Assembly (NCBI GenBank): GCA_046563655.1
Contig: CM102289.1
Location: 5,766,001 to 5,830,000 of the forward strand
Direction: 5' to 3'
From: Yuukianura sp. NJ FZ-2021
Taxonomy: Eukaryota
Length of the DNA stretch: 64,000 nucleotides
A program made the translations under genes and the position numbers. How positions within the stretch are numbered: position 1 is the first letter of the stretch; each line of letters opens with the position of its first letter. Below the pieces are notes generated by a model that worked only from the letters and a program-made list of their open reading frames with translations, was not told the DNA's origin and ran no database searches. Of the stretch, positions 16,201-50,660 are shown in pieces.

Positions 16201-16929
16201 TTAACCTTAAACCGGGCGGATCTGTAAGTCCTGACGGTAATTCCAGCACGTAATCCTTCCTGAATTCCTCTTACAGGCGCCATCTAGCTTCCGATGCCCA
16301 TCGCTGCTGACCCTTGACCTCTGGCACCTTAACACTATTTTCAAATCGTTTCAATTTTTAACACAAATTTCACTTGCCAACTTTGTTGAAAATTTTAGGC
16401 GAAACGGAGCAGTCCGCTCGCTACGGTCAGAGACGAGGATCACTCTCTCCCGAAATCGCAGAACTCAACCGGGAAACCAGAGCTCGAAGAGCTTCCTTCG
16501 GCCTACCCCCGAAATAGTTACAGCAGCCAATCATCTTCATCCGCCAGTCCACTACCGATACCGAGAATCGAAACGGCTCCACCCACACGTCGAGAAGCAT
16601 CGAAACAAACAAGACGGTTGTCTCCGTCAAGACTTTCTGGCGGCAGTTTTGACGTGGCCGTCAATTATGGATCAATATTTGATTCAACTCCGATTAGTAA
16701 TCAACTTTTAGGAATCCATTTACCCAAGTCTGTTGTGAATAATAAATCGTTAAGTCCGCCACTAGAGGAGGAGTCAGTTTCGACTCCTGTCTTTGCACAT
16801 CCGCAGTGCATCTCTTACAATACATCGCCACTTCATTCTCCATCGACGTCTCCGACGTCTCCACGACGCAGACTCCCGCGACGCCAAGCATCTGTTACAG
16901 TCCAAGTTCATGAAACGTCACCTTCATAA
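7267..16929 (+). CDS. Voltage-gated Na+/Ca2+ channel alpha subunit, Nav2 (DSC1/NaCP60E/BSC1)-like; about 31 exons; N-terminal exon unresolved
   Basis: Spliced exons give four 6-TM repeats. S4 segments: [12 protein letters not shown] (~8137-8172), [52 protein letters not shown]. Pore loops: TLDYWE (8943), AQEWIE (11456), TFEGWME (13868), TAAGWND (15279). DIII-IV linker [12 protein letters not shown]-terminal YDPTATQFI and IQ motif IQRAWRAY (~16017). Approximate exons: 7267-7529, 7932-8188, 8273-8519, 8640-8723, 8825-8969, 9037-9171, 9251-10104, 10179-10276, 10371-10470, 10543-10740, 10825-11001, 11092-11301, 11398-11509, 11582-11701, 11788-11937, 12316-12549, 12649-13035, 13122-13227, 13318-13364, 13432-13596, 13678-13785, 13859-14056, 14123-14277, 14348-14481, 14570-14763, 14850-14958, 15066-15159, 15266-15556, 15622-15842, 15906-16223, 16399-16929. 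Confidence 0.95.
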
Positions 16930-24200: not shown

Positions 24201-27200
24201 CAGCGGGACATCCTAGTGTGCAAAAATGAAATTCGAAAAAGTGACTAATGGCGGATGGATTGCTGAAGACACAAATTGCCATCCATCCGCCATTTCCCCC
24301 GGGGGGATCCAAATGACAAAAGGAGTCCATCGCTCATTCTAATTGCCATTATTTGCAGGCAGGAGGAAGCATGAAGATCATCGCAAACAGTCACTCCCCG
24401 CGGACTTTCAAAAAGTTTTTTTTCGAAACATATCACTTTCATCTTCAGCCACCAATTTCCAGTAGCTGACATGCCAGAAGAATGGACCAGAAATAAATGT
24501 CACTGTCACAAATCACGACGACGACGTCTCCACTCCCATTTTATTGGTACAAAAATGTCAACGACGTAACCTCTTGGTCATTTGACCACATTTAAAATTC
24601 AACACCAGCCTAAAAGTGTCACTTTCGTACGTCTTAATGTGTCATCCTCAAAAGTTTCTTTTCATCGACTCAAAAACAAGGCTTAATTATAATTTCAAAT
24701 TAGGTTTCATCTTTACGAAAATAACTCAATTCCAAATTTTTCCACGTCAAAAAGTTCAAAAAAATTAGGAAAGACGTAAATGCCTAACCCTAATTTTTGT
24801 CAACTACTGTCACAAAACCAGCCTTGGAAACATACTTGTCTCCCTGGAAAATGATTAGGAATGTTTCCAAAAATCATCCATCTTACTTTGGTGTCTGAAG
24901 CAATCCACATGCGTCAGCGCCTTGTCAAATTCTAGACCTGCAGTTTCTCATTTTGCAAAATCAGGAGCGATCAGGATCAGCATTCAGCAACATTAAGCAA
25001 AAATGATCACCAAGGAACAATGGGCTTGATTGGACGCTAATCTCCATGGAATATCAAATCATTCTAATGTTCTTTCCCATTGCTAAAAATCAAAATCATC
25101 GCAGCTTCCAAGAACTACAACTTTTTAGAAATGCTGGAAGTTCAACAGAATCGCAAGTGTCACACTTCCGAAAATTAATAGGAAACGGAATTTTCAAAAT
25201 TACAAATTACACATTTTATGAATGGAAGAATGACAATTGGTTCTCTGGCAGAAGCAGCAGCAGCATCCATCTAAATGAAATTAGGCAACAAAGACTTTTA
25301 AGAGCTTTGACCTCAATTTCAATTCCTCTTTGTTACTAAAAACACCGAGCAATTTTCCAATGATGCGTGATGAATTCAAGTGTTGGGTGTTATGAGGATG
25401 CACTTTGCCAGTAGGATGGAAAGTACAAAAAAAGTAGAAAGTATTTTTAAAAAGTTGCTACAAAAAAGTTTCGTAGCAAGAAAACCCTTTCCTCATTTCC
25501 TTAAACGAGCGAGTAATATATTAAACGCAAAGCAATGAATTTTGATGTATGCGGAATAATTCCAAACTAAACATGGGATTTAACAAAAATTTTATAAAAA
25601 AAAAATTAATAATATGGAGAAAAATATAAATATTCAATCTCAATGTCAATGTAAAAGTTCAAGTGCGATTTTGAAAGACTGGCAGAAGATGATCTGCCAC
25701 AGATCGTCTTCATATTGGAATGTCGCCTGTGCGTGTTTTAGCGTGTAATACACGCTGCGTGTTGAAAGCTAAAGTTGATCTCACACAAAGTAGATGACAA
25801 ATTGGCTCTACAATCCTAAATACAGGGACAATTGACAAATGGCATACAGAAAGTCGTTTGGTTGAGGTGAAGGATTTTTTCAAGAATTGAACTTTAAAAA
25901 TACAACAAAAATCTTTGAACGTAAAAATTGCTTCAAATGTCTACATCTCCACCCAGCCCCTTAATTTTAAAGGTTTAAAATGAAACTGGTTTTTTCAAAA
26001 TTTCGTATTTTACAGACGAACTAAAATTCAAGAAGCTCGCAGCGGTGTTCAAAAGCCTTCTGGATATCAGAAACCGGCTTCAATAAAATACAAAATTGAT
26101 CCCATTGTTCTTGTTCATGAAAATTGTTCATTGCATCTTTCACTTAAAGTTCATTTATCTTCCTTCGTATTGGATAAATTGGAAACATGCATGTTGAAAG
26201 ATTTTCTTTGCCACGTTTACACGCCTCTCAATTTAATTTATAACAACTAACCGGTTAAGCTCCTCAATTAAATCTATCCATCATTTCATCAAATTGCAAT
26301 CTAAAATTTTTCTATTCAAAATTCAAAAATTCCGATCAAAAATGAATTAAACCGGTAAAAAGCTTAGCTGAATATTAAGTTGTACATTGAAGGCGCGTCT
26401 CACACTATGAACATGAGAAATTTTTTGGAACAAAAACTATAATTTTTGGAGAAAAAACGAGAGGTTTCTGGAAATTAAGTTTTTTTTTCGGCAAAGAAAA
26501 ATTACCGTAGATTTAAAAATAGATTCAGAACCGCATCTTCAGCCATAGTCAGGAAAAGATTGTTCACGCCTTCCGCCCTTCCCATCATCCACCGCCGCCA
26601 GACAAGAAATGCATTTCTGCGTTCGTTACGGTTCCTTAGTAATTTCTACGTTCGGAACATGCAATTTACTATGAACTCCAAATGAAACTTGAAGTCGAAG
26701 CTTTTCATTCTTTTGGACTTGTGCCAGAAACAAGAGGATAGGCCTTTGCCTGATATGTTTCTCCGAACGATGATAAACATTTGGTAGTAAAAAGTAAATT
26801 CATTGAAAATCTAAAAATTGAACTTGAAAAGAACATTCAAGAAATAAAATGACCCCAACCGCATATCCGGTGAGCTTCCTCCATTCGTTTTGCTTAAAAA
26901 AAATTAACAATGAACTTGAGAGCAAAAAATTCGCGGTTTGCGACGGCGGTTAGTACTTGCATAAAGTGGTTATGCCTTCTAAATTTAGCGTTACTGTCAC
27001 TGCCATGCGATGTGGGAATATGAAATTGATCAAAGATGATAAAAAAAAACTAACTTAACCGGTCCGGTCATTCCAGAAATTTTTGGTTAGAGGAAGGCAG
27101 CTTGTCAAAATCGTTCCATACGCTGAACATTTCAATATCAAAGTGGGGTCAGTGCGGAAACCATTTACAGAAACTGCCTTAATTCCAACCATAAAACTGG

Positions 27201-28228
27201 ATAGAACAGGCACATTGAAATTGACAATGGGACAGGGACTATAAAAGTACTATAGAAACAGCAGACCTTAGTCATTTTGGCTTTATTACATAACCGTTGA
27301 GACCATGACTAAGGACCACGGCGACGACGGTTTCAAAAGATGAATATCCTTGTCCTAGACAATACCTCATGTTCCACGGTGATACAAGACCATTGTCAAA
27401 CATAAGCAAAAAAACAGTGGAAAGGTACAGGGCGGGAAGACATGTTTCTGCCCAACATCTGTCATGTCTACTCTGCTCCCCTGCTTACACATTTTTTACC
27501 AGTTTCCAGTGAAATGTTCAACATGTTAAAAAATGGATGCTAAAACATGTTAAAATTATGGCCGTTGCTCCTTGGGAGAGTGAACGAACGCTTGCATGCT
27601 CAAAGTAAAAAAAACCTAAACAGTTTACCGAAGCAATACGAACTTAACGCAAAAACACAAAAGAAAAGACTAGTTACAGTAAAGTCCCTCATTCCGCAAC
27701 ACACTTTTCTTCTTGACGAAAACCGTAAAACTCAAATTCCTTTTTGAGACAATAAACATAGCCTTTCGAAAAAATGAATCGGTGACTTGAGTTTACCCTA
27801 TAACGTAATCGGAGACTTTACGGTATCAAACGGTGGACTTTTCCCTGTTGCATAATGAAGGGGTTTTACTGTATCAAACTTTTACTTACCTTCTCGTGGA
27901 AAGTTGCATTATGCAGTTCATCTAGGGTCGGACGAGGCACGGCATGGATTGACATCAAATCCCGGTAGTTGTCATACTTTGGCAGAGCTTCACGAGTCAA
28001 CTGGCCAAGACTCTTCAAGTTCCAAGTATATTGATGCTGTGTCATCCCTTCGTAGTTTTCAGATGGATCTTCTTCAGAAATAGCTGCTCCACCAGCCACC
28101 ATTTCCGGCCCTACTTTGGCCACTTGAAACCGACTTTTCTCAATATCGTTCATCTCTTGATCTTCCGCGGGATATCGATATGTCTCTCCCGAACCTTTGC
28201 TGATACTGACCCTACCCTTGCTCGGCAT
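18300..28228 (-). CDS. SLC12 Na-K-2Cl cotransporter, paralogue A (canonical NKCC / Ncc69-like)
   Basis: ATG 28228 (MPSKGRVS), RFQV motif, TREALP...[98 protein letters not shown], and [16 protein letters not shown] (18300-18302). Intron of about 4.6 kb after the first coding exon. Confidence 0.95.
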
Positions 28229-29620
28229 TGTGCTTAAATTAATTCTAAAACATAAACAATTCAAATTATAAATACAAGCCCATTTTAGTAGTTGCATTTC
28301 CAATTACAATCAGTCCGATGTTATTGTTTACTACCTGTGTCACCTTTGAAACTGTCTCTGTCACGCCAACGATGCACAATTTGTGCACAATTATCAGTAT
28401 TGTTCACGAACCGCGATTATAAATCGTTACACCGGAAGTGTCAGTTTTTCAAGTGGATTGATGACAATGACGATGAAGTGCCCATGGCAAAAAATTGACT
28501 CAGAAAGTTGGCAGTTGCCGGATACAAACAAAAGACAAGACAAGAAACTTAACTTTGATTTGACAACCTTCTCTGCCGAACAGAAAGTGCGGACTGGAGA
28601 GCAGGGGGAAGTAGTTCTCTCAATTTATAGCATAAACATCATGATTATTCAGAGTCATGAACACACGCTACACAGTACCATGGTAAGCCGTTCATTAACA
28701 AGAAGACACGTTAATCATTATCACACTAAACAATTAATTCAATTTGTAACCAACTCTTTAAGCCAACGATGCATGAACAGTACTTTTCTCGGTCGATCGA
28801 ACAAAAGGCGGGAAAATGAAAGGCGATTGAAAAAAAGCAGCGGAAAACGAAAGACGATCGAAAAAAAAAAAGCGGGAAGCTGTTGATGCTTTCAAATCCG
28901 GAAGATTTTGTTGTTACGTTATCGCTTCGCATACATTCTTCTTTGTTCCGAAAAATCCGAAAAGCTGACAAATGTTGCCTGTTTTGTACCGAAACCCGCA
29001 CGGTGGGAAGAAACATTGAAAAGTTGAACGATTTTGACACAAACTTACATTATCCAGGAAAGAAAAGTCTGTTTTGGATCATACCTTACCATTAGAGCCA
29101 CCAATACCACCGGTGGTAACGGTTCCTCCTGGAAGGATGGATACTGGAGCTAATAATATAACGGAAGTTACCCCAGTCTCCATGTAGATGCGGCGAACTT
29201 TCTCCGACTTTTTCCGAAACAGAAACTTTCTCTCCTTTAAACAAATGCTCCAGCCTCTTCCAGGATTCCATTTGGAGGGAGACAGGGAGCACAAGCACAT
29301 CACCGACACAGATCCGGAAGAATCACCTGCTGCTGCTGCTCCTTGGTCTTACTTAACGTGTAGTCCAGGATTTTGTCGTTGGAGACAAATTGGTTCCTTC
29401 CAGGAAAATTGACATTTTCCGGCACAAGCCCAGGACGAGACAATTCAAATCCGGAATCCAAAAATCGTTTAATTGGAAATCGAAACATCTTTGCCAAGAC
29501 TAGGAAAAATATACTGGGTTGAGCACAATAGAGATTTAACTTAAGCAAGGACGTTGCAAAAGGTCAACTTAAATTGAAAAATTGGAATCTTTGGAACTCG
29601 GAAGGATCCGGCATGGTTGA

Positions 29621-33039: not shown

Positions 33040-36000
33040 TTACGAATAGAAAGTTAGAACAGACGTCTGATTTCCACGGACCAATAGGAAAGGCGGCATG
33101 TCTCTCGTCAGAACTTCCAGCCACGCCATGTACAGAGGTGCTGAAACTTGACCTTTTCGGGGAATTGGAAGTGTCCTAAAGATCAAAATTTTGAAATTGA
33201 AGTTCGAATTTCTCTAAAAAGTGTCATTTGAGCTCTAGTTTCACAACGTTTTTCGTTTGTTCTGAAAAAAAGAACTCACATTGCAATGAGATTGGATTGG
33301 GCTGAATGTTCTAGTAAAAGTTCACGGAGTCGGAGATGTCGATTTGTCTTTTCTCGGAGACCAAGAAGTTCACCATTGGTTATCAAAGTCTCAGGATCAT
33401 CTATAGAACAGAACAAGAAAAAAGTGAAATTCGAGACACGTTGTTAGCCCTGTGCAGATAGAATTTCACACAATGTTCAGCAATTTCGTGATTTTTGGAA
33501 CAGAAGGAAGGAAAATTTTGGCAAAGAGAAAGTTATTTTGGGAAGGAGAACGTATGGTTTCATACGGGCTTTATCTTGGTAAGCAGAGAGAACTTGAAAA
33601 GAAGGCAGAAGAATTAAGAAAATATGAGAGTTCGGTTTCTGCTTTCAGTTGCAGAAAGGAAAAAAAATTGGGAGAAACTTGTGGTTTTTTTTTTCGAAAA
33701 AGAAGAAATTGAGCTGATTCAGGAGAAAAAAGAGACACGAGAAGAGAAAGCGTGGGAAACCTTTGCCAAAAAAAAGTTGTGCAAAAATGTGTTATTTTAA
33801 GACTCCGCAGGAATAGAACGAAGGAAGCGACGCTTATTGGTTCTTCCCTTTAAGAAAAAGTTTCACAACTTTCACCGTGGCATTTCCTCATAAAAATTTC
33901 TATAAAAAGTCTTATGATTTCAAAAAAATTGTGAGTGTTGCTTTCAACTTGTGTAAACAAGTACAAAACTCGGAATTTTGTATAAACAAAATGAGACAGG
34001 AAGACACGCAAAAGAATGAAATATTGTTTAACTAAGAATTTAATAAGGCAAATGAAATTTTTTTAGTTTCCCAATAAGTTTTTTTTTCTTACCGAATTTC
34101 TGTGGATCTCCTCGGAATTGCTTAATGAGCGACTCAAAGAAAACTTGTGATGAGTCTGATGCCTTTGTAGTTACGTCCGGAATCACGGTTAGATCGGAGT
34201 AATCGATACGAAACTTAGACAAAAGACTTGCCATCCTGTCCACGGTTTCACCCAAAGGAAAATAGAACAGAACAAAAAAAATAGTTTTAGCCAAAGCGAT
34301 CTTACTTAATAGATTTGATCAGCTCAACGCACACTTTCTTCTTTCTCTTTCTACGTTTCGCAGAATTCTACGCCTCTCATGAACGGAAACTTGTGAACGG
34401 ATCGGCTTAGGGATATAACTTTAATAGACACAGGTAACTGTACCGTAGTGTTCATATTAAATATGCTTAGGAGTTCTATGCATGACCAAACCGGTTCGTA
34501 AATATGCGTTCAAAAGTGACCTAGTCACTTGTTCGTACAAGACAAAGAAGACATAAGGTTTGACAGCGGATAGTCATTTATCCAAAGTCCAATTTCAGAT
34601 CAAATTCATTTTGGCACGAACAAGGCACTTTCGCCTTTTCTTTTTTTGGAAGACAGATGAAGTTTTTTTTTTGGAAAACTTTTTTTTTCTCAGAATTCGG
34701 ATATTTGTGCTGAATAGTAATTATTAAAAAGTTTAACACGAAAGTTGAAAAAGGGATACTCATAATTTTTGCCAAACTTTTAAAACTCCCAATTTTTAAA
34801 AGTTTCCTACCGAACAGCTAAAACTCGGAATAATCAATTTTTTGGACAGATTTTTTTTTGAAAACTTACCCTCGATGCTCAATTTCCATTTCAGTTTTTT
34901 TGTTGCCAAGAACAAATACACGAAGACGACACTGTGACCAATTTTTGCGAGTTTGAATAATGTAGGGTAAAAGGAGAGTCAGACCTAAAGTAAGAAAAAA
35001 AGAAGTAAAAAAAAAGAAGTCATGTTTAGCTTACTACTATTTTGAATTACGAGGAAATTTTCTTTGTTTTAAAAAGTGGGCCATTTTTCATCCAGCTCGC
35101 TCTGACACTTTTACAAATTCTTTCTTTGTGAATGCCAAATTTTACATTTAAATTCCATTTCCAGCGTCATGTGATAACCTACTATTTTAATATTTTAGAA
35201 AAGTTTCAACATTTGAAGGGTGCTGTAGAAGTTTGAAATTTAGTTGCTCAAAAAGTTCAGAAAATTTTGACAAAAAAAATCGTAGGTGGTGGTATTACAC
35301 GAATTCGAAAAAGTTTAAAGTTGAGCCCCACTTAAAAAAAGTTTTATAGCTGCCCATTATATTATTTTCCTTTCAATATCCTAATGATTGCCTCCCATAA
35401 AAATCCAGTGAACCAAATCCAAACTTCTAACATGTCTCAACACCTTTCTCAATTTTCTGTAAAGGCTTCCAATTCTACCCGGGTATTTTCAAAAATTCCC
35501 TCGGTGGCAGGAAACTCTCTGTCCTTTTGTCGCCAACGATAAGAAATAGAATTATAAACTCGTTTTCGTCTCTTCCTGTTCCGAAAGCAGGAAGAAGAGG
35601 AAAAAGTTGGAGAAAAGCGTTTCCTGGAAGGCAAGCGCGGGGGAAAAAAAAGTTTCGTAACTGGATTACTCCTTGGTTTTCTTTACTAGGAAAATCCATG
35701 AACGGAGAAAGTTGTCTTTTCCTTTCGCTGCTTATTTGCTCGAGTTGTTAAGTTACTACACTGTACGCCCCCATTTTTCTTAAAACTAATTTAAGTCCCC
35801 CCAGACTAGGAGTTAAGTACCCTCAGAAACTACTTTGGGGACTTAAGTCCCTCTGTAATCCCCGCAAATCGTGTCTCAACTTACCCCCGTCATCATATAA
35901 CCACCACACATCAATGACTCCCTTTCCTTGTTTCAGTTGAAATGGAGACATGGGCACGCATTCCGTTCCGGGTTCTGATCCGTTGACTCCTGGCCCTCTG

Positions 36001-39000
36001 CATTTTTTAAAAACAAATTGCAGGTCAAAAGTAGCCGAATTTTGAAAAACTTGCGAGGGAACATTTCCAACCTGTAGTCGAGTTTTGGAATTTAAAAAAT
36101 ACAGTCATATTCTGTATGCCAAAAGAAAATTTTCCGCACTAGTTTCAGTCGCCAATGCCAAGAAAAATTACCCAACCTGGGCTCGAACCCGTGGTCCCAC
36201 TCCAGAAGAATGAGAACATTTTTTTGGGTCGAATTTTTCGACAGACAAAGTGTTTAGGATATTATATCATACGATTTACACGTTTGCTGTTGAATAATTC
36301 GACATAAAAAATATTTAAATTATTTAAAACATTGTCTGGGTCTTCGTATAAAGTGAGGGTTCGAGCACAGGTCGGGGTAATTTTTTTTGGCAATGGCAAC
36401 TGAAACTACTGCGGAATTTGTTTTTCAATATATAGACAACGATTGTATTTTTTAAATTCCAAAACTCAACGACAGGTTGGGAATGTTCCCTCGTTAGTAA
36501 AAGGCCAAAGGTTGGGGAAAAAATAACTTTGGAACGGAAACTCACCGATAGACGCCGCCACTTACACCTTCGTCACTTTCACGCGGGGATGAAGTTGTCG
36601 TTCTCGAGTCAAAAACAAGTTTATTCCCACGCCGAGTAGCTGCGGACAAATTGTTGACCTGCGTGATGCCACCGTTTCGATCATTAGCAGCCTCTGGATC
36701 TGTCGGGTCAACTTCCAGAATATTTTCAAATGTGTTGATAGTGCGGGGTGAATGGGCCATCGGACGAATTAAATTTCGCGGTAAATTTTCTTCTAGACCT
36801 CCAACAATATGGGAGTTGTCCAGAGCCCCCTTTGTACGTAAAATGGCAATGCCCAAATGGTTATCCAGAGCCTGGCTGGAAAGTCAAAGGTCAAGTTTTA
36901 ATCAGAAAAGACGATCAACTTACAAACAAACCGAAAAGTAAACTTTTAAATGCTTAAATTTTCTTCACCGCTGAAAAGTAGATTTGAAAGAAAAGCAATT
37001 TGGAGCTTAAAAGGTCCAAAGTTGAACAAAAGTTTGTAAATTGAAAAGAGCACAACATGAATTGACTTTTGGAAATTTAGTTTAAGTGTGGCGTGACACT
37101 CCCAGAAGAAAAAGTGTTGAAGTGTGTAGTTCTTCTTTCAAAAACTTTTTCCCATGTCCAAAATGTCAAAGTTTTTCGCATACCCAAACTTTTTTGTGTA
37201 AAGTGAAAGTTGACAGAGACTGAAATTGTGAAAGTAGTTGGAAAGTGGGAATGACAAGTCGCTGAAACGGCACCTCAGAAGTTTTGTTTTGAAAATGGCG
37301 CCAAAAGAAAAAGAAATTGAAAACCCCACTTTCCTTCAGATCATAAAATAAATAACACTCCCTTACGATAACAAGCAAAAATTCAATAACTTACTGCAGG
37401 ATGTTAAAGTATTCTTTAACTTCTTCTCTGTCTTCACAAACTTGCCAGTTAGCTTTGTAGCCCATTAAAAGAATGTTTGGCGCCAATTTTCCAATTCCGG
37501 TTGACTGAATGAGCGCTTGACAACCTTCATCAAATTTGCATCCGTCAACCATCACGTAGAAGGCTTTGACTTTCTGTAGGTGTAACCAGTCGTAGCCATT
37601 TTGAAGCACAACTCTTCGAATTCTCGCTGGAACTTGGTCCTCTTGAATATTTGCACAAATTAGGAGCGAATTCTAAAACAACATCCAAAATTTGGTTTTG
37701 CAAGTGAAAGTCTTAATTTGAAACTGCTTGGTATAATTTTTTTTTTGTTTCTTCCGCTCTAAAACATTTCTTGACCTGTTAATTTGCTAATTATGACTGA
37801 TTAGATATTGAAATAACGTTAATTTAACTTACCTTCTTTGTAATTAAAGAAGCGAGATCAATGAGAGCTGGACGTGAAGACGGAAATCCACTGAGACACA
37901 GGATTTGTGGACGGTAGTTTTTGACATGTTCGTTTTGAACGGCCAGGCGTTGCAACGCTGTCAAAGCATCTTGGTACGTCTGCGCTTGGGTAGTTGTTCC
38001 CCAATTTAAATCTAAGTAAAACCCAAAAAAATGAGGCTCACTTTTCAATAACTTTCGTTAAGAAGCCTAGTAAAGTGGAAAAAATCTTACCGGGATTTCG
38101 GTAAACAACGATGGAGTAACAAACAAAAACACAGAAAATGGCAACTAGAGCGCAAACCCACGACATCAGGAACTAAATAGTCAAAAAATGACGTTAATTT
38201 TCGAGAGTGCAATTTTAATTGTTTTCGTGTACTCACCATCACCACAACACAAACAACAGCTCCTGCTAAGCTCAGCCAAGTATTATAATACTACAACAAA
38301 AGTTTTAAAAAAATTCACAGATTTTCTTTTGTGTTTTTACGAAGTTTTGAAGGAGTTGACTAATTACCTTGAAAGTAGGTCTCCAGCCAATTGGCCTCAC
38401 AAGACTAGCGTGAAATGTACAGTAGTTCAATAGTGCGTACTAAAAGCAATCAAACTTTTTTAATTAGTTTGGAAAAATTACGTGTCTTAAATGAAAATCT
38501 TACCGCTGCCATGAACATGGAAGAGATGAGCATAGCTATAGCGTTGAGATCAGCGATGAGAATGAAGATGAGTGCTATGAGGAAGCCAAGTGCATACGAC
38601 CAGTAGGGGTCATCGCTCTTCTTGTACCCGATTCCAAACCTATTATTTTATATAAATTATTTATTACAATTTATTTTATAATATTCATAATTGATCTTAC
38701 CGGGTCAAATAAGGGTACACTTCATCCTTACAAAGCGCTTGAAATGTCTTCGGACCAGACACCATGCATGACAAGGCAGATGATAACGTTGCAGCAAAGC
38801 ATCCCGCGTAAATAATTGGACCTGCGTTATTATTATAATTAAATTTTAATGTACAATGTTTATTATTAGTTAAATTATAATAGTTAATTTATAATAATTT
38901 ATAATCATTAATTTATAAAGTACAAAAACTCCAAGACTTACCAAATGCTGACATCAGTTGCATAACCTTAATCAAAACAGAAAAAAATTAAGCTGGTGCT

Positions 39001-42000
39001 TCCCTTTGCTATGAATGCAAATTTTTTTAAGCTTTACTTGGTAGTCATTGTTGAGTCCCCATTTGCAGCTGTAGTTGGCGTAAACACAGTCTGTGTAAGT
39101 TCCATTTTCATATTCCGATACAATTCCACTTGCTTCACGGACTTCACCTAAAATTTAAACAAATTAATTCTAAGCTGTGACGTTGGTTTTGAAAAAAAAA
39201 ACAGTTTTATAAGGATTGAATCTGCAGAAGTTGTGTCTGACATACCTGCTCCTGCCAGTAGAGCAAACACGGCGTACGAGCCAGACGTAATGAAAATGGC
39301 CAATAGCGTTCCAGTGGGAATTGCAAAGCCAGGATCCTATATAAAAGTTCAAGTTTTTATTATTTTCAAAATTTTGACACCAATTTTAAAGAAAAAGTGC
39401 TAACCTTCAAATCTCCAGAAAGTGACGCTCCAGCCTGAATTCCGGCAACGGAAGGGAAGAAAATTGAGAAAATAGAAAAGAAATCCTGTTCCATTCCTTC
39501 ACTAAATCGGTAGCCAGGAGTTAAGTTTTCAACGAAAACTTTGGCTAATACAAATCAGGATAAATTAGTTAAACCAAAAAATTTAATGAAAATTTATAAT
39601 GTTATATAATTATTGTTTGCTAATTTACCACTTATTCCTTCAAATCCTTTTGCTTTTTGCAAATCCGACTGTGGCCCCATACAAGCTCCAACAACAAAAT
39701 CCAACATGGCCACTAATAGAATCACGAGCAATCCAACTTGAGCCTAAAAAATTTTTGAAAAAAATTATGAAGGTTTTAAGCTAAAAACTGCTAAAAAAGT
39801 ATCAAAACAAACAGTATATAAAACCACATAAGCCAAAAAAAGCCTAAAGCAATTTTCAATAAATCGTATAATAATTTCAGTAAAAACATTTTTTTTTTCA
39901 TTCTGAAGTTATTTTGTTCTGTCGTTTAATTTTAGTTGCAGCGCATTGTTTGGTGAGTAATTTTTAGAAGTTCTAAGAACATAGTGACAGCCATTGCTGA
40001 CTCAAAATAACCCTTAAAATTGCTTTTAACTGTTTCAGTAGAGTTAATTACTGTAAGTTAGTTAAAATTGGCAAACCTAATTTTAAGTGAACCTAAGTTT
40101 TGACTCACCTTAGCTTCCCATTCCATTCCAATTATGATAATTGACTGAAGAGCAATGAGGGCTATGACGCTAATAATTCTGTTGTCGTTGACTCCGCCGT
40201 CAACAATACTTAAACCTTCTGCTTTCAAAAGTGAAATCAACGATTCTGAAAATCCGACAATATTCAGCGCAGCCATTCCTGCGTTTGCAAAACTGAAAAC
40301 CACACCCACTGCGCCACCAAATTCCGGACCAAGACTTCGCCTAAAACCCCAAGAAAACAATTTCTTTTAAACAGTGATTCAAGTTTTTAGAGAAAATTCT
40401 TGTTGTTCGAACATGCAACTTACGAAATCATGTAGTAGAGTCCACCACCTTTCATTTCTCTGTGGAAAAGAAAATGAGATGGTGAATTTTATGGAAATTT
40501 TGGGAATTTTTACTAATTTTGGATAATTTTTAAAATTTGAACCAATTACCCGTTAGTAGACATTGCCGACATGCTTAGAGTGGTAACGCAAGTAATTGCA
40601 GTTGAAATAACAATAATAATTAAAGAGTGCGCTGTGGAAATAAAAGTTTTAAATTTTTTATTTAGTAATTTTGAAAACTATTTTTAACAAAAATATAATG
40701 CAAACTTCGCACTTACCAATTCCAGCCTGTCCGACCATCCAAGACAGTCGAAGAAATAGCATGACTCCCCTGTCGTAAGAAAAAGTTTTTTGAAAACTTT
40801 GTACAAATTTTTGAAAACTGTCAGATTTTCAAAAAAAAAAAGAAAAAAAGAAAACCTTACCAAATATTTAACAGACAGCGAACCAAGCATCCTTCAATCC
40901 ACCCAAACTTTACAGCCCCGCCAGCTCCATCGCCATTTTCAATGTTTGGACTCTAATTTTGTTCAAAACGAAGATAATTAACACTAGTTGATTTGACCTA
41001 AAAAAATGTTGACCTCTGACCTCTCTCCGTCGAATGTCTCCACCTTCATGAAGGTCGTCCAGCGTTGGACGCTGAGCCGCTTGAAACGACATGAGATTTC
41101 TGTAGTTTTCCATTTTAGGCAAAGCTTCTTGGGTGTACTGCTGAAGGCTGAGGCCATAGTGAGTATGGTCACCACCCGTAAAGTCTGCGACTTCCGGAAG
41201 AAAAACGGAACTCTTCCGACGCACATTCGGATTCGCACCGGTACAAGCCGAAATTTTCCGAACAGCCGTCATTGTGCACCGTGTCGTTTCGGCCCAAGTG
41301 CCAGTCGTTACTACTGTACAGACGCCGCCGTTGGGTGTCGTAGGCGACCGTTCTTCTGGAATTGCGTTTTCCAATCCACGCAGACTTCCAGGTCTCGTGG
41401 TTCGGAGAACAATGGAATCGATTCGGTCGACTTGGAATCTGCTTCCAGAAGGCTTCTGAATCTAGAATAACGTTAGGACAATTCAAAAAAAAATTTGAAA
41501 ACGTGAGAAAACTGAAATCGCGAAAAGTGAAAATATTGTTGACTGATGAGATGCAACTGAAACAGCGACTGTTGGCCTGCGAGTAGCTTTGGGAGTGTCG
41601 AGTCTAATGAGACTGTTTAAGTCAACAGAAGTGAAAGGTGATTAAATAGACGCTAAACTGTAGATGAGGCAGCCACCCTACGTTTAACGCTAACGTTAAC
41701 ATTAGGTTTACATTAAGTTTAGGTTAGGCAGAAAGTCTCAATCGCACACCAGTTCCAGACGTAAGTTGTTTCTTTGGAGCGAAGTGTCATGAATTGCAAA
41801 ATACTTGGAAAAAGGCTTCCCCCACAAACTTATTACTCACAATGACATCACAACTTGATCTCCATCTGCTAACCGCAATAACCTTTGCAATTTTAACACA
41901 TTTTTGATAATTTACAGAATTCAGCATAACTTAAAAGACAAAAAAACAAGTTTATCGATAACAATTTTTGATTCCAATGAAGTACGAAATGAATTCAGCA

Positions 42001-44420: not shown

Positions 44421-47400
44421 TTAAGAATAAAACGTAAGAACGGATGTTTGGTTTCCGCGAACGAGCAGAAATGGTGGCATATCTTTCGTCAGGCACTCCA
44501 GCCATGCCAAGTAGAGTGGAGCCGAAACACCGCCGCGACGTGGGATAGGCTGAAATTCAAAAACAAAAATGAATTCAGTTTTGGCGCCAATTTTCTAAAT
44601 CAAATTTTTACTTCTGGTCGTACCATGGTCATTACAACAAGATTGGCCATTCGGGAATGATCCAACAGAAGTTCACGAAGTCGTAAGTGGCGATTAGTCT
44701 TTTCCCGCAAACTTTTTAGTTCAGCGTCCTCCACTTCCATTTCTAAAATGAGAAAAGTTGGTACTTGAAACTTTTTTAAAACAAAAAAGTGATTTGTGCT
44801 CAAGTTTTGTAGTCACCAGGATCTTTTCCGTCGTTTCCGCTTCTGTATTCCTTGATGAGCTCATCAAAAAATTTCCAGCTGACATCCGTTGCCTTCTTGG
44901 TCACATCCGAAATGATAATCAGGTCGGAATAAGAAATTCGAAATTTTGACAAAAGACTAGCTAGTCTGAAAACAAAAATTTTCATAATGTAGAAATAATT
45001 TTTTATCGTGTTCCAACATTTTCTAAATTGATTTACCCTGCTTGTTCCACTTCCAAATTGTTTTGTTTACTTGCGAGAGCAAAGACGCGAATTTTGCTTC
45101 CTTGAAAAATTGACCTTGTAGAAATTATGTATGGAAGCAACATAGTCAACCCTCCATCGTCGTATCTTCACAAATTAAAATGTGGATTAAAATGTGATAT
45201 TTAAAATACTTGGTTAAAATAATTATCCAATTCAATGAAACTTACAGCCACCAAATGTCAATTGTTGACTTCCTTTGTTTCGTTTGGAACTGAGTCAAGT
45301 TGTTTATAACGGATTTCGGAAGGATATCTCCGTTCGGACTCCTAGAAGCATTTCAAAGACAACAATAAATTTTATACTCAAATTTCAAAATTTCAAAGTT
45401 TCCAAATTTCAAAAATTTAAACTTGAAGATATTACCTTAGGTTTTGTACTAAATCCTTTTGGCGTTTTTTCATTTTTGAATCTCCTTCTGGCTCCATTGT
45501 GAAACCGCCATTTCCATGTCCAAGATCTGGCGTCAAATGGGAAGACGTACTAAACCCACCTAGAAAAGTACACAAACTTTAAATTTGTTAGCGCCTAAAT
45601 TCTGGCGCTAAAATTTGAAATAAACAAATTTTACTGGCGTCGGATTCGACACGAGAAAGCGTGAGGATGTCCACCACCTCTTGGCTGTCGACGTTGATGA
45701 GGTCAGAGTAATCAAGACCCTCTCGCAATCGTAACATTGCAAATCCCAGGTGAGTGTCCAGGACGTCGCTAAAATGTTTAAAATTTGTTTAAAATATTCA
45801 AAAACTTTTCAAACAGGTTCAAGAAAATTGCTGTGTTTGCTTACTGAATTACACGGAAGTAGGCTTTTAGTTCTTCCGAGTCACATGTTTTCCAATCCGA
45901 TTTAAATCCCATCATCACCTACATCAAAAATAAGTCTAAAATTGTGCTTTTTTTTTGTTTTTATATAATTTTTTTAGTTTTAGTTTTCCATGAACAAAAC
46001 TTCGACAAAAAAAAAGCTACGAACGTACAATGTTTGGCTTCATTTTGCCTAAACCAGAAGCTTGCATCAAACATCGCGCGCCTTCTTCAAAATCGACGTC
46101 GTCCACCAAGCTGTAGAAAGCTTTGACTCTGTGGTTTTGAAACCAGGAGTTGGCTTTTGCATTCAAATACTCCCGTACTTTATAAGATTGTCTATCCTAA
46201 AAAACAAGTTTCCAAATTGAAATCAACAACTTTTTTGAAATATTTGGAAACTTACTTGAATAATGTGTCCGCAGATGACCATTGAAATGTTTTTGGTAAT
46301 CAAGTAAGCAAAGTCAATTAACGTAGGGCGTGAAGAGGGACGCCCGCTAAGCAGCAGAATTTGCGGTTGGTAGTTTTTGATGTGATCTTGTGTGTTAGAT
46401 AAAGCTTGAACGGAACTCAATGCACTTTTGAAATTTTGTGCCTGTGCTGATGATCCCCAGTTGACATCTGCAAAACCACATTAAACTGAATTTAATTTCT
46501 GTGTAATTTCATTGTTAAATTTTTACTTGAACGTACCTGGCTTAATGTAAACCAAAATTAGGAATAGACATGCCAGAATGCCAAATGTAATGAGAGCAGT
46601 GACCCATGACATGAGGAACATAATGGCCACACAAAGCACAAATCCAACGAAACTACTGTATTTGCTGTAATACTAAAATTCAAAATGAAAATTTGCAAAT
46701 TTTTATAGTATCGCCATCAAAAAATTTGAAAATATTTTTTTTTCACAAAGTTTACCCGAAACTCTGGACGCCATCCAAGCGGTTTCACCAAAGCTGCATG
46801 GAAAGTACAAAAGTTCACCATAGCGTACTACACAAATCAAAAAGTTAAACCAATTTTTTTTAAAAACCAGTTTAAAAATTTTGCAAAAAAAAAAAGGAGC
46901 TCCAAAAATTTACCGCAGCCATGTAGAAGTTGGATATTAATGGTGCGATGGCATTGAGCTCAGCTAAACAGTTAAAAGGATCAAAATGAAAATTGAAGCG
47001 GAAATGTTGCATAATCAATTAACCTAAAGCATTTAAGATACCCTATTTTAACCTAACTTACTTAAATTAGTCCTTACCAATCAGAATAAAAGCCAGTGCG
47101 ATGATGAATGCAATAATGTAGGCATAAAACGGATCATTGTTTTTCCGAAATCCTCTTCCGAGTGGACCAATGAACGGATACAAATTGTCTTTGCAAAGAG
47201 CTTGAAAAATTTTTGGTGCAGAAACGAGACATGCCAGTGCAGAGGACAAAGTTGCAGCAAAACAACCCGCATAAATAATTGGACCAAAAATGGCCATGAG
47301 TTCCATGATCTGAAAAATCAGAGATTTAGTTAGCCTTTGAAATCTTCCAATACGGTTCAAGTGCACACCCACCTGAAAACTGTTGTGCAATCCCCATTCG

Positions 47401-50400
47401 CAACTGCTCTTTCCAGTAGTGTAGTTGACTGTACAGTTATTGCCAAATTCCCAAGTTTCTACAATTTCTTCTGTCAAATTTCCAACTGGACCCATTGCAT
47501 CTCGGATGCATTCAGATCCTGCCAGAAGTGCAAAAATAATGTAGGAGGCAGTGGTAGTCAAAATGGCAAGAAGAGTTCCTTTTGGAATGGCCGCAGAAGG
47601 ATCCTGTAGTTGAAAAATGAAAATTTTATTACGAGTTTCTAAATTTTTGTGACATTCTTGACCTTCAAATCTCCAGAAATGTTGGCACCAGCAGTGATTC
47701 CAGTTGCAGCGGGAAAAAAGATGGCGAAGATTGTAAAGAATCCATGTTGCATTCCGTCTTGAACCCGAAAGTTTGGAGAAAAGTTGTCAGCAAATGCGGA
47801 TGCTTCAAAATTTTGACACAAATAAAATAAAATTTAGAATTCATACTAATACATATTCAAAACTAAAGCATCATATTCACTTACAATTAAATCCAATGTA
47901 GCCTCTAGAAATTTCATCTGAATCAAGTGGTCCAATAAAAGCTCCAATAAGAAAATCCGCAATTGCAACGAGCAAAATTATCAGCAACACAATTTGAGCC
48001 TAGTTTGAATTTTCTATTTTCAATTTTTTGGCACATTCTACCAAATTTAGTAGTTTCAGTTTCATAATAGCAGAGTATTCGGTGCATTTAGTCAATTGAA
48101 TTATATCAACTGCCATTGCATCAACTGAATTAGGTCAAATGGAAGTGTATTAACCATCAAATGTGTCTGTTAATAATTTTATCCACGAACCTTGCCAAAC
48201 CTAACCTAAGCTAAATTAGCAATTATGCACGTTCACACAATTAAAAAGTTGACAAAACTTGGTTGGTGCGATGGCAGTTGATACAATTCAATCGGTACAA
48301 TGGCGTCCTCCCACGCATACGTATTGAGTTTTGAATACAAAATGTTTGATTGTATTCTCACCTTCGACTCCCATTCAGTTCCGATAATAATGATGGACTT
48401 TGGAAAGAAAATTTCAAAATAAATTTCAAATTTTCAAATTTGTAAGTCCGTTTTTTATATAAGAAACTGTCCTACCTGCATCACAATTAACGCAATTGTT
48501 CCAACAATTCTGATGTCATTCTGTGCATTGTCAATAATTTTGACCTAAAACAAAGCAAAAAAATATCAGCAAATGTTTGCACATTAAGTAAAGTAAGAAT
48601 TTTGAAAATACAAATTGACTGTGAAATTACTTGTAATGTTTTCAACAGATCGTTCAGAGACTCAGCAAATCCAACTGTGTGCATTGCAACTGCCGTTGCC
48701 TAATTCAGAAAGGAATTGCAAAATCATTAGTATTTTCTCAATGTTCACATTTTAAAGATTTCAAAAAATTCAAAAATTTGTACATTTGCAAAAGAGAAGA
48801 TGGCTCCCACTGCCCCTCCAAATTCTGGACCCAGCGCTCTAGAATTTAAATTTTTAATTTTAAAGTCATGCAGTTCTTCATGCTTTTGAAGCATTGTTGA
48901 ACTGGAAACATAAAAAGGATAACTTTTATATTTCTCTCACCAATTCTGTTTAACATTCAACAACTTTTTATTGAAATTGATGATTGAAATTAAAATTAAT
49001 TCTATTAGCATGTTATCCGATAGACTCAATCTAGACTCATAAAAATGCTGCCAGACACATGACATGCGTCATGCGTTTGTTTACGAAAATTCACATGAAT
49101 TCAAACAGTTGCTGAGCGTGAGGTCATCCGTTTTCGAACCAAAAATAAAAACAATTGAACCAAAAGATGCCGAGTTTGCCAAGGGTGTTTCAATTGTACA
49201 CTTTGTTAATTTGTACTTTCATTGACCTAGGGTAACTCTGCGTGTGTAAAAACAAGTGGAAAAGCTTCTCGATTTTTAGAAAAGTCAAAAATCGCATGAG
49301 TGTTACCTTGAAATCATGTAGTAAATTCCTCCTCCCTTGATTTGTCTAAATAATGAATATAAAGGTAGGTTTAGATATAGAAATGTGTGAGTTGTGCAAA
49401 ATGTTCTAAATTTTGAATTTTTACCCATTGGTGCTAATTGCACTCATGCTAAGAGCAGTCAAAGTGGTTACAGTTGCAGAGAGACAAATGATTACAATGG
49501 CCAATCCTGTTAGCACAATCAGTAGCTAATATTTTTAATTTCAAAATGTTTTTTAGTTGTAATAGTGCTAATTTGGGACAATTTTTACCAATTCCAGCTT
49601 GAGCTACAACCCAGCTCAATCGCAAAAACAACATCACACCCCTTGAGAAATAGAGCAAAATTAGTGAACCTGATTTTCCAAAAAATATCACACCTTTTCT
49701 TTCATATTTAAACTAAATCAGTGCATATTTTGTTACCAAATGTTGAGCAAGCATCGCACCAACACCCCTTCGATCCATCCGAATTTAACTGAAGTTCCAG
49801 CAGCCTCCGGTTGTGGTTCAGGTTTCTATTTCGAAAACGAACCATTTACGTAAACATGAACCATGTCCAACGACTTAGAGTAAACGCCATAATCATACAT
49901 AAATTCAGGTAGAGTGGCAAATTTGAAATTCAGTTTGCGTTTCATCGAAAACATAAAGAAATTAAAGTGCAACGTGAACAACGTAAAATACGAATAAAAG
50001 GTTAAACCAAATCCGGAAAAAATTTTCTGGTCATAAAACGTTTTCGTGGAAGATGGTTTTGAAAAAGCACATCAAATACAAATAACCTTAAAAATTCAAA
50101 TTCTGTCACTTGTTTACACATGAGTTAACTAACAGCATAATTAAATTTTGGTATCGATTTTTTCAAAAAAAACATATGATCACTTGTTTCTTTACTCTGG
50201 CTAAGTTCTCGGACTTTACCTTGGCATACATGGCTTCGCTGCGAAGTTCATCCATCGTTGGTCTTGCACAGACCTCGTGGCTTTGCAAATTCTTGTAATG
50301 GTCCATTTTTGGCAACGCTTCCCGCGTGTAGTAAGCCAAACTTTGTCCATACACCGTCTGAGCTTGCGCACCGCCATCATCCTCTTCATAGTCAAATTCC

Positions 50401-50660
50401 TTTGGCAAACTCACAGACTTTTTGCGTCCTCCTCCCAGGCCCTGTGCAATGGACGTTCTGCGTTGCATCTGCGGATGCGCCGTGGGTTGCTGTGCACAAA
50501 TCACATTAGTCAACTCCTGTTCTTCTGGAATTGAACTACTCTGAAGACCCAACCCACCACCAAAGTTCAGTAAAAGTTGGCCCGAAGAAATACGATTTAC
50601 CCGAAACCGGTTAGAGTCCAGAGTCGGAGGTGGAGGATTCGAACTAGGGATGTCTGTCAT
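44421..50660 (-). CDS. SLC12 Na-dependent cation-chloride cotransporter, paralogue C (NCC-like His at the K+ site)
   Basis: First in-frame ATG 50660 (MTDIPSS), [87 protein letters not shown], and [16 protein letters not shown] (44421-44423). Confidence 0.93.
48096..48291. mobile_element. Small MITE-like element: 30-bp inverted repeats around a CCTAA-repeat core, in an intron of paralogue C
   Basis: ttgaattatatcaactgccattgcatcaac (48096-48125) versus the reverse complement of 48262-48291, ttgaattgtatcaactgccatcgcaccaac (3 mismatches). Central aacctaacctaag near 48198-48210. Confidence 0.55.

Follow-up and report, generated by a model that had tools for sequence, protein, structure and literature searches.

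A springtail SLC12 cotransporter gene with a histidine at the NCC position of TM3

Three tandem SLC12 genes

The stretch of DNA analysed in this study (the window, 64,000 nucleotides) holds three tandem SLC12 genes of the N(K)CC type, all on the minus strand, in which the site corresponding to Tyr383 of human NKCC1 (hNKCC1) is Tyr, Asn, and His in turn. The third of these, gene C, was delimited by spliced protein-to-genome alignment against P0005, a His-type orthologue from Orchesella dallaii. It has 26 exons with no stop codon and 25 introns, every one of them GT..AG, and its product is approximately 1080 amino acids long, starting from the ATG at 50660-50658. Residue numbering follows hNKCC1 unless stated otherwise. 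The genes and the features of gene C used below are:

18303..28240, minus strand: gene A, the remaining, Tyr-type paralogue; the 5' end of the model is uncertain
33043..41599, minus strand: gene B, an Asn-type paralogue adjoining gene C, orthologue of Orchesella cincta P0066
44424..50660, minus strand: gene C, a His-type N(K)CC-family SLC12 gene
50220..50660, minus strand: exon 1, cytoplasmic N-terminus
50598-50609, minus strand: RFRV in exon 1, a motif of the RFxV SPAK/OSR1-docking type
50310-50327, minus strand: TREALP in exon 1, aligned with the hNKCC1 phospho-acceptor segment NTMDAVPRIDHY
49589..49825, minus strand: exons 2-3, TM1
48784..48838, minus strand: exon 6, first half of TM3, including the Asn equivalent to hNKCC1 N376 and hNCC N227
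48700..48783, minus strand: intron splitting TM3 after FSFAN; 84 bases, phase 0, GT..AG
48631..48699, minus strand: exon 7, second half of TM3, 23 residues, with human NCC chains as best PDB matches
48679..48681, minus strand: His codon CAC, equivalent to hNKCC1 Tyr383 and hNCC His234
47663..47802, minus strand: exon 11, TM6
47078..47309, minus strand: exon 13, TM8
46756..46963, minus strand: exons 14-15, TM10

Gene C is intact and of native arthropod (springtail-like) origin, and within the SLC12 cation-chloride cotransporters it belongs to the Na+-dependent N(K)CC branch. Single-exon pieces match the Pfam domains AA_permease, with 80.5 and 27.5 bits against a cut-off of 24.6, and SLC12, with 30.8 bits against 27, and AA_permease_N falls slightly below its cut-off of 21 at 19.5 bits; all three domains are present in P0005 according to a precomputed domain list. 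Identity of the protein is 75-76% with its His-type orthologues, P0005 and P0003, 52-53% with canonical arthropod NKCCs, roughly 50% overall with NKCC1, 48% with NaCCC2, and 40% with a fish NCC unit. Membership in the N(K)CC branch is indicated by greater closeness to NKCC and NCC than to KCC (P0005 scores 979 bits with hNKCC1, approximately 852 with hNCC, and approximately 360 with KCCs) and by nesting among N(K)CC sequences in trees.

The initial annotation had described the N-terminus as arthropod-type and the introns as common to gene C and its neighbour, and both descriptions hold. The segment TREALP stands where hNKCC1 has TMDAVP and is the same in canonical arthropod NKCCs, and 12 of the 25 intron positions are common to gene C and the neighbouring paralogue and eight to gene C and gene A, as expected for a native gene. 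Among the three paralogues of the window, the intron that splits TM3 is found in gene C only. The RFxV motif and the segment with the phospho-acceptor Thr are N-terminal features that gene C has in common with vertebrate NCC; the docking and phospho-acceptor roles of such motifs are taken from the NKCC and NCC literature. Gene A has the NKCC1 state at every ion-site residue except one (V502), and gene B has part of the insect NaCCC2 signature discussed below (N383, S497, and Q502).

The TM3 histidine and the ion sites

An NCC-type motif in an invertebrate cotransporter had been reported in the initial annotation at 48655-48838. The motif is present, and that span covers both of its coding pieces; the strand, which had been left unstated, is the minus strand, and the motif is encoded by two exons across the 84-base intron. 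Through P0005, in which the motif is matched residue for residue, the His of gene C aligns with Tyr383 of hNKCC1, and it also aligns with His234 of hNCC. In this, gene C is like vertebrate NCC (SLC12A3), which has His instead of the K+-coordinating Tyr found in TM3 of other CCCs. The human NCC motif given in the initial annotation is correct, since the NCC chains in the PDB read the same, and 10 consecutive residues of TM3 are identical in gene C and human NCC. A comparison of the 23-residue peptide of exon 7 with the PDB ranks NCC chains above NKCC1 chains, with E values of 0.009 and 0.6-0.9, respectively. The resemblance is not a chance match, because the SLC12 gene whose TM3 contains it is intact across 26 exons and the motif is aligned in the orthologue P0005; the same His and flanking motif are found in both P0003 and P0005, which come from other sources. 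The motif is also only one change away from its local background, the TM3 of canonical springtail NKCCs (P0022 and P0043), since the transition from the Tyr codon TAC to the His codon CAC suffices. In human NCC, the reverse substitution H234Y abolishes transport, but the protein is also destabilised. One residue need not set the stoichiometry of a transporter.

The motif is not exceptional. His at this site is not rare and is widespread in arthropod relatives: among 258 aligned family members, site 383 is His in 28 and Asn in 22, including sequences from Daphnia, Cloeon, Ischnura, and Macrobrachium. Within hexapods, the His type was found only in springtails, the mayfly Cloeon, and the damselfly Ischnura, whereas NaCCC2 is spread across insect orders in a homologue search with P0124, and 117 of the 119 proteins from that search have Asn at the site (the other two had no motif match). 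Loss of Tyr383 co-varies with a change at position 618 in approximately six of seven independent pairs (sign test p ~0.03), and Tyr occupies position 682 in 14 of the 28 rows with His at 383 and in 9 of the 22 with Asn, as compared with 3 of the 185 with Tyr. That insects have lost this Tyr, with Asn in aeCCC2 and aeCCC3, has already been put forward in the literature as a probable reason for their K+ independence. No description of a His-type arthropod N(K)CC was found in open PMC and bioRxiv main texts, and no functional data for any His-type arthropod protein were found in the open PMC and bioRxiv literature. A His common among characterised K+-transporting invertebrate NKCCs, which the initial annotation had named as evidence against its reading, was therefore not encountered.

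Most of the remaining ion-site residues are those of NKCC1. In TM1, R294, L297, N298, I299, W300, G301, V302, and M303 are all identical; in TM6, P496, A497, T499, G500, I501, and N506 are kept and L502, a residue of Cl- site 2, is replaced by Thr (47693-47695); in TM8, A610, S613, and S614 of the Na+ site are kept and at position 618 the Ser of NKCC1 gives way to Cys (47229-47231), the residue of human NCC (C472); in TM10, Y686 of Cl- site 2 is kept and position 682 is Tyr (46923-46925) rather than the Phe of NKCC1 and NCC. The Na+ site of TM1 and TM8, which we take to consist of L297, W300, A610, S613, and S614, is thus identical at all five positions. In KCCs, Gly is found instead of S614 (Duong 2022, PMC9012228). 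Gene C agrees with both NKCC1 and NCC at R294, L297-M303, P496, T499, G500, I501, A610, S613, S614, and Y686, and departs from both at L502 (L355 of NCC) and F682 (F536 of NCC). The mark of a canonical NKCC, the Tyr383 hydroxyl as K+ ligand, is absent. Compared with the canonical arthropod NKCCs (Ncc69, aeNKCC1, and P0022/P0043), the ion-site residues are the same except at 383, 502, 618, and 682, where the canonical proteins have Tyr, Leu, Ser, and Phe.

NKCC1 is not a thiazide target. The thiazide contacts of NCC are N148, N226, H233, T351, N358, C471, and F535 in the numbering of Zhao 2024; gene C is identical to human NCC at six of the seven, including the Cys at C472 (F535 is Tyr), and NKCC1 at five, so these residues alone do not decide drug response. 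The insect NaCCC2 signature, as given in Duong 2022 (PMC9012228), is P294, N383, S497, Q502, T614, and N618. The corresponding residues of gene C are R, H, A, T, S, and C, none of the six states. All six are present in five insect Asn-type rows, and ten rows carry five of the states in the wider table, positions 294 and 497 being tabulated only for a printed subset that includes those five insect rows.

Phylogenetic origin of the histidine

Trees were built with TM3 removed: a quick ML tree of 72 rows and 941 columns and a more careful LG+C20 tree (45 rows), for which values are given as UFBoot/SH-aLRT. In both trees, gene C falls in a hexapod clade (17 rows and SH-aLRT 99 in the quick tree; 100/99 with LG+C20) that contains the His genes of springtails, mayfly, and damselfly as well as the Asn lineage of NaCCC2 (aeCCC2/Ncc83). 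The arthropod clade has support of 100/100 in the LG+C20 tree, and vertebrate NCC and vertebrate NKCC are sister groups (99 in the quick tree, 100/96 with LG+C20). Within the hexapod clade, the His sublineage forms one clade with moderate support (75/89 with LG+C20), and in the best trees gene C lies in this sublineage, sister to the Asn sublineage with NaCCC2 (75/89 and 71/88). A single clade of the hexapod His genes and vertebrate NCC is rejected by the AU test (lnL difference 182, p 4.8e-6), and the His of gene C therefore arose independently of vertebrate NCC. Of the two origins offered in the initial annotation, convergence is borne out by the grouping of gene C with arthropod N(K)CCs when TM3 is excluded, and ancestral retention is rejected. 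The premise that NCC is usually regarded as vertebrate-specific agrees with the literature consulted, which places the origin of NCC at the base of the vertebrates and states that there is no genomic evidence of NCC in crustaceans; reviews of freshwater ion uptake assign a Na-Cl cotransporter route to fish, not to insects or crustaceans.

Other arthropod His genes fall elsewhere in the best trees. The Daphnia His genes group with branchiopod Tyr-type genes (97 in the quick tree, 99/95 with LG+C20), and the His gene of the prawn Macrobrachium lies inside the decapod Tyr-type genes (100/98); the His-type paralogues of both animals are annotated as NKCC. A single clade of the hexapod, Daphnia, and Macrobrachium His genes was rejected (p 1e-63). 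The AU test did not reject descent of the Daphnia His/Asn group and the hexapod clade of His and Asn genes from one origin (p 0.32), and the Daphnia His-type paralogues have the triad H383, C618, and Y682 in common with gene C.

Predicted transport and alternative readings

The best reading, with a probability of roughly 0.55, is that gene C encodes a K+-independent, Na+-coupled, and most likely Cl--coupled NCC-like transporter belonging to a native hexapod His lineage. A hexapod paralogue lineage, gene C included, has lost the K+-coordinating Tyr of TM3; in one sublineage (springtails, mayfly, and damselfly) the site is His, which came about independently of vertebrate NCC and requires no more than the single base change from TAC to CAC, and in its sister (the NaCCC2 proteins aeCCC2, aeCCC3, and Ncc83 together with springtail gene B) it is Asn. 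Because gene C has had only the Tyr hydroxyl replaced, as NCC has, and retains the Na+ site, the backbone component of the K+ site, and nearly all Cl- site residues, the protein is predicted to carry Na+ inward without K+ and probably with Cl-. Its N-terminus may be the target of WNK-SPAK/OSR1-type phosphorylation controlling the protein, which may serve to take up or reabsorb salt. The sequence and structure of the gene, its clade, its independence from NCC, and its residue states are results of the analysis; from them we infer its ion stoichiometry and electroneutrality, its sensitivity to drugs, its regulation, and its role in tissues. NCC-like transport, electroneutral at 1Na:1Cl without K+, and NCC-like drug response are predictions from sequence for a protein that is not orthologous to NCC.

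Descent from the same gene as vertebrate NCC, kept from the bilaterian ancestor, might have been suggested by the ten of ten motif residues in common with human NCC and by the Cys at the C472 position, but it is very improbable and was rejected on the AU test and the tree position: vertebrate NCC goes with vertebrate NKCC, and gene C is 40% identical to the fish NCC unit versus 52-53% to arthropod NKCCs. It is just as hard to credit that the His is an artefact of a pseudogene, a one-base assembly or sequencing error, or contamination, given a frame that stays open over 26 exons with canonical splice sites, an arthropod-type N-terminus, introns common to neighbouring paralogues, and the recurrence of the His and its flanking motif in P0003 and P0005 from other sources.

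Two other readings deserve more weight, although each is unlikely. Gene C could work like NaCCC2, conducting Na+ (Li+) electrogenically without dependence on K+ or Cl- and without sensitivity to thiazide or bumetanide, rather than as a Na-Cl cotransporter. It belongs to the same hexapod clade, whose sole functionally characterised members are aeCCC2 and Ncc83; it shares with NaCCC2 both the loss of Tyr383 and the Tyr at 682, and the springtail Asn-type counterpart, gene B, adjoins it in tandem. Both aeCCC2 and Ncc83 mediate Na+-dependent currents (Piermarini 2017 and Kalsi 2019, cited from Duong 2022, PMC9012228), and Li+ uptake by aeCCC2 is described there as Cl--independent and not blocked by bumetanide, hydrochlorothiazide, or amiloride. 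However, apart from its His in place of Asn, gene C has none of the NaCCC2 states P294, S497, Q502, T614, and N618; it keeps R294, which Duong 2022 (PMC9012228) ties to Cl- binding, although L502 is Thr; and its branch is short, with about as much similarity to canonical NKCC as to NaCCC2. Equally doubtful is that gene C remains a Na-K-2Cl cotransporter like Drosophila Ncc69 (described as 1Na:1K:2Cl and bumetanide-sensitive), one of the usual tissue-specific NKCC paralogues with changes in affinity; K+ would still bind with His in place of the Tyr hydroxyl, the other K+ ligands being backbone carbonyls. The retention of N298, I299, P496, and T499 is consistent with this, as are the greater overall closeness of P0005 to hNKCC1 than to hNCC and the public annotations that name such proteins bumetanide-sensitive Na-(K)-Cl cotransporters, names that are assigned automatically. 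Against it, loss of the Tyr accompanies K+ independence in every characterised case cited (His in NCC and Asn in aeCCC2), and the co-variation at 618 and the enrichment of Tyr682 suggest a remodelled pocket and not a neutral swap.

The NCC-like reading can be extended, more tentatively, to the His-type N(K)CC (H383, C618, and Y682) of early-branching hexapods and branchiopods as a whole. Such a protein would serve arthropods as a Na-Cl cotransporter of their own, electroneutral, K+-independent, and possibly thiazide-sensitive, which evolved independently of NCC through the same key substitution and was lost in neopteran insects, and it might lie behind Na+ uptake in Daphnia neonates and NaCl uptake by the springtail ventral tube. 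According to the summary in Griffith 2017, Na+ uptake in Daphnia magna neonates is thiazide-sensitive; this, together with the triad common to gene C and the Daphnia His paralogues, lends the NCC-like reading indirect support.

Should its transport turn out to be like that of aeCCC2 or NKCC, gene C would be one further uncharacterised paralogue. If the NCC-like reading is true, the His-type arthropod lineage, in which the Na+ site and nearly all Cl- site residues are kept, with the exceptions of Thr at L502 and the changes at 618 and 682, would amount to an independent natural repeat of the transition from NKCC to NCC. It could show whether the change from Tyr to His, alone or with those at 618 and 682, is enough to take K+ out of the transport cycle. 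Thiazide-sensitive Na+ uptake in Daphnia would likewise gain a candidate gene, and the locus, with its tandem array of three genes that differ at one site (Tyr, Asn, or His), makes a compact comparison set.

Gene C and its neighbours

Three tandem N(K)CC genes lie on the minus strand between 18303 and 50660, each with a different residue at the column of the K+-coordinating Tyr383 of human NKCC1 (His234 in human NCC).

Features of the window
~7000-16900, plus: voltage-gated cation channel gene of several exons, apparently sodium-channel-like by its translated exons; three of its pieces hit Pfam Ion_trans (E 1e-11 to 1e-18)
18303-28240, minus: gene A, Tyr at the site
30636-31502, plus: NAD(P)H-hydrate dehydratase gene (Pfam Carb_kinase), between gene A and gene B, in opposite orientation
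33043-41599, minus: gene B, Asn at the site
50618 to 44424, minus: gene C, His at the site; 26 exons, reference-guided model (spliced alignment)
48838-48784, minus: gene C first TM3 exon, read as 18 residues (direct translation)
48699-48631, minus: gene C second TM3 exon, 23-residue peptide (direct translation)
48681-48679, minus: gene C His codon, CAC (translation)
53059-54278, minus: protein-tyrosine phosphatase exons (Pfam Y_phosphatase), directly upstream of gene C
55774-58260, minus: open frame of 828 residues with abundant Ser, Thr, and Pro as well as His-Asp/His-Asn runs, no Pfam match; may encode a mucin-like or low-complexity secreted protein

Gene C was modelled with a custom-written spliced protein-to-genome alignment program against its closest database protein, P0005, the His-type orthologue from Orchesella dallaii. 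All 25 introns are GT..AG, including one of 84 bases between the two TM3 exons, no stop interrupts the model, and an in-frame ATG at 50660-50658 brings the product to about 1080 residues. Pieces from single exons hit Pfam AA_permease and SLC12, with AA_permease_N scoring just below the cut-off. A 178-residue piece finds its best database matches in P0003 (67%) and P0005 (65%); insect and crustacean proteins annotated as bumetanide-sensitive Na-(K)-Cl cotransporters come next, which marks the window as arthropod DNA, probably of a springtail. Among PDB chains, the 23-residue peptide matches NCC (E 0.009) ahead of NKCC1 (E 0.6-0.9), and the NCC motif given in the initial annotation is indeed that of the human NCC chains. 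Aligned over its full length with human NKCC1 (7d10_A, native numbering), P0005 has its His exactly at Tyr383.

Genes A, B, and C are 48-51% identical in pairwise comparison, and any two of their codons at the site differ by a single base, the first. Counting introns as shared when alignment column and phase agree exactly, B and C have 12 of 25 positions in common, A and C have 8, and A and B have 7; among the three paralogues the TM3-internal intron occurs in gene C alone. In their N-termini the sequence is T[RQ]EALPK, against TMDAVP in human NKCC1, with an RFxV motif upstream in genes B and C. Gene A has RFQV within its first ORF, and its first-exon model is doubtful because the ORF at 27866-28303 is continuous and contains this motif. 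The shared introns and the N-termini bear out the earlier claim of a native gene, with no indication of contamination or horizontal transfer. In database records of several species, paralogues of different types have equal longest-contig values (O. dallaii P0005/P0043, O. cincta P0022/P0066, Ischnura P0023/P0347, Hetaerina P0027/P0334, Daphnia pulicaria P0056/P0087/P0096, Anabrus P0067/P0327), which suggests that linkage of different-type N(K)CC paralogues is widespread.

Phylogeny and origins of the His state

Among the best 120 matches, HTVGF occurs in P0003, P0005, Cloeon P0010 and P0011, Ischnura P0023, seven Daphnia proteins, and Macrobrachium P0110, and Asn occupies the site in Orchesella cincta P0066 and P0084. 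An alignment of 258 proteins, each 600 residues or longer, combined the three window models, the named matches, and 150 representatives at 50% identity; in this non-random set, gathered with a His-type query and including close duplicates, the site column has Tyr in 185 rows, His in 28, Asn in 22, a gap in 16, Cys, Thr, and Phe in 2 each, and Ile in 1. One member, Danionella P0006 (1984 aa, named SLC12A3), consists of two fused NCC-like units with His in the first and Asn in the second, probably two tandem genes joined by annotation. Acipenser P0004 and P0045 carry an UNVERIFIED_CONTAM flag from their source.

A FastTree overview of 218 of the 258 rows (omitting P0006, P0045, P0007, and rows below 75% coverage) placed gene C inside the arthropods with springtail, mayfly, and damselfly His genes, adjoining an Asn clade. 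A quick maximum-likelihood tree of 72 hand-picked, realigned rows (P0006 split into its two units; LG+G4; 941 columns, 31 TM3 columns removed) gave a 17-row hexapod His+Asn clade (SH-aLRT 99) comprising a springtail Asn pair (gene B and P0066), a His clade (support 94) of Cloeon, Ischnura, P0005, P0003, and gene C, and ten Asn genes of insects (support 100). The 17-row clade and the canonical Tyr-type NKCCs together make up a 27-row hexapod clade (support 95), and among the vertebrate rows the NCC type is the sister group of NKCC (support 99). Gene A stands apart from the canonical springtail NKCC (P0022/P0043), of which the window holds no counterpart, and forms a group (support 99) with P0125 (His), P0130, P0133, and P0152, outside the branchiopod+hexapod clade.

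Clade support (UFBoot/SH-aLRT) in the careful tree: 45 of the 72 rows, LG+C20+F+G4, 1000 ultrafast bootstraps
Arthropods: 100/100
Hexapod His+Asn clade: 100/99
His sublineage: 75/89
Asn sublineage: 71/88
Branchiopod Tyr+His: 99/95
Macrobrachium His with one decapod Tyr gene: 100/98
Vertebrate NKCC+NCC: 100/96

Groups for AU tests on the 72 rows were set after the overview tree had been seen, apart from hexapod His with vertebrate NCC, which was the initial annotation's own alternative. As a single clade, that group was rejected (lnL difference 182, p 4.8e-6), as was hexapod, Daphnia, and Macrobrachium His (406, p 1e-63); the 17-row hexapod clade with Daphnia His and P0137 was not rejected (13.5, p 0.32). 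The 72-row tree needs at least 6 changes between His and not-His and 9 between Tyr and not-Tyr. From these tests and counts, the His of gene C is convergent with that of vertebrate NCC; within arthropods, His arose at least twice (decapod versus the rest) and possibly more often. The motif had been taken as convergent or ancestrally retained; the first option agrees with the placement of gene C inside arthropods without TM3, and the second falls with the AU result.

Pocket residues of the His and Asn types

Pocket residues of gene C, hNKCC1 numbering (P0005-7d10_A alignment)
TM1: R294, L297, N298, I299, W300, G301, V302, M303
TM3: N376, H383
TM6: P496, A497, T499, G500, I501, T502, N506
TM7: conserved Tyr
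TM8: A610, S613, S614, C618
TM10: Y682, Y686

At the listed positions gene C differs from NKCC1 only at 383, 502, 618, and 682; the Na+-site residues are those we take to form that site. The triad H383, C618, Y682 recurs in springtail and Cloeon His genes and in Daphnia His genes.

Residues accompanying each state at 383 (raw row counts)
Tyr, 185 rows: Tyr682 in 3, Cys618 in 4
His, 28 rows: Tyr682 in 14, Cys618 in 16
Asn, 22 rows: Tyr682 in 9, Cys618 in 9

In several separate clades, Ser618 is lost together with Tyr383, frequently giving way to Cys or Asn, and Phe682 has often become Tyr. Loss of Tyr383 goes with a non-Ser 618 in about 6 of 7 phylogenetically independent pairs and the reverse is never seen (sign test, median p 0.03); it goes with Tyr682 in about 4 of 8 pairs, which falls short of significance (p 0.125).

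Nan et al. 2022 identify which NCC residues correspond to the TM1, TM6, and TM10 ligands, and point out His234 as unique. Zhao et al. 2024 name the thiazide contacts Asn148, Asn226, His233, Thr351, Asn358, Cys471, and Phe535; the residues of gene C there are, in the same order, N, N, H, T, N, C, and Y, with Tyr in place of Phe535.

A search with P0124 (Nezara) found the Asn-type paralogue across insect orders, with Asn at the site in 117 of 119 proteins and no motif match in the other two. Several carry the name 'sodium potassium chloride cotransporter', distinct from 'sodium chloride cotransporter 69'; the NCBI naming presumably goes back to the Drosophila gene. P294, N383, S497, Q502, T614, and N618 are all present in five Asn-clade rows, and ten rows have five of these states in a table covering not all six positions (294 and 497 not tabulated). 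The six make up the set of conserved differences given for dipteran NaCCC2 (aeCCC2, aeCCC3, Ncc83) in Duong 2022 (PMC9012228), where residue 383 is a 'substitution of R for Y' in section 4.2 and asparagine in the introduction. Gene B and its orthologue P0066 have a partial signature (N383, S497, Q502) alongside R294, S614, C618, A499, and S506, and gene B looks like an intermediate state of the NaCCC2 lineage.

Proposed transport by gene C

The analysis establishes the sequence of gene C, its structure, its clade, and its residue states; its function is inferred from a handful of residues. As judged from the aligned residues, the pocket of gene C is an NKCC pocket minus the K+-binding hydroxyl, as in NCC, and without the further NaCCC2 changes. 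This combination favours K+-independent, Na+- and Cl--coupled transport, to which we assign a probability of about 0.45, slightly under even odds. One rival is an Na+ conductance of the aeCCC2 kind. According to Duong 2022, aeCCC2 raises Li+ uptake in oocytes and not that of Rb+, independently of Cl- and unblocked by furosemide, bumetanide, hydrochlorothiazide, or amiloride, and gives an Na+-dependent current; gene C shares a clade with this Asn type and lacks its additional substitutions. The other rival is an NKCC that has kept K+ coupling.

An arthropod N(K)CC paralogue lacking the K+-site Tyr is already published for the Asn type, and Duong 2022 regards the missing Tyr (Asn in aeCCC2 and aeCCC3) as a probable reason for K+ independence. 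His-type proteins are present in public databases under automatic NKCC names, but neither a His-type arthropod lineage nor its link to NaCCC2 nor the 383/618/682 pattern was found described in the literature searched. Neonates of Daphnia magna are described as having thiazide-sensitive Na+ uptake by Griffith 2017, who cites Bianchini and Wood 2008, and a 2025 study of Exopalaemon shrimp knows of no SLC12A3 in crustaceans and uses expression data to propose that one NKCC paralogue converged on NCC. While not evidence on gene C itself, this physiology is consistent with the K+-independent reading.
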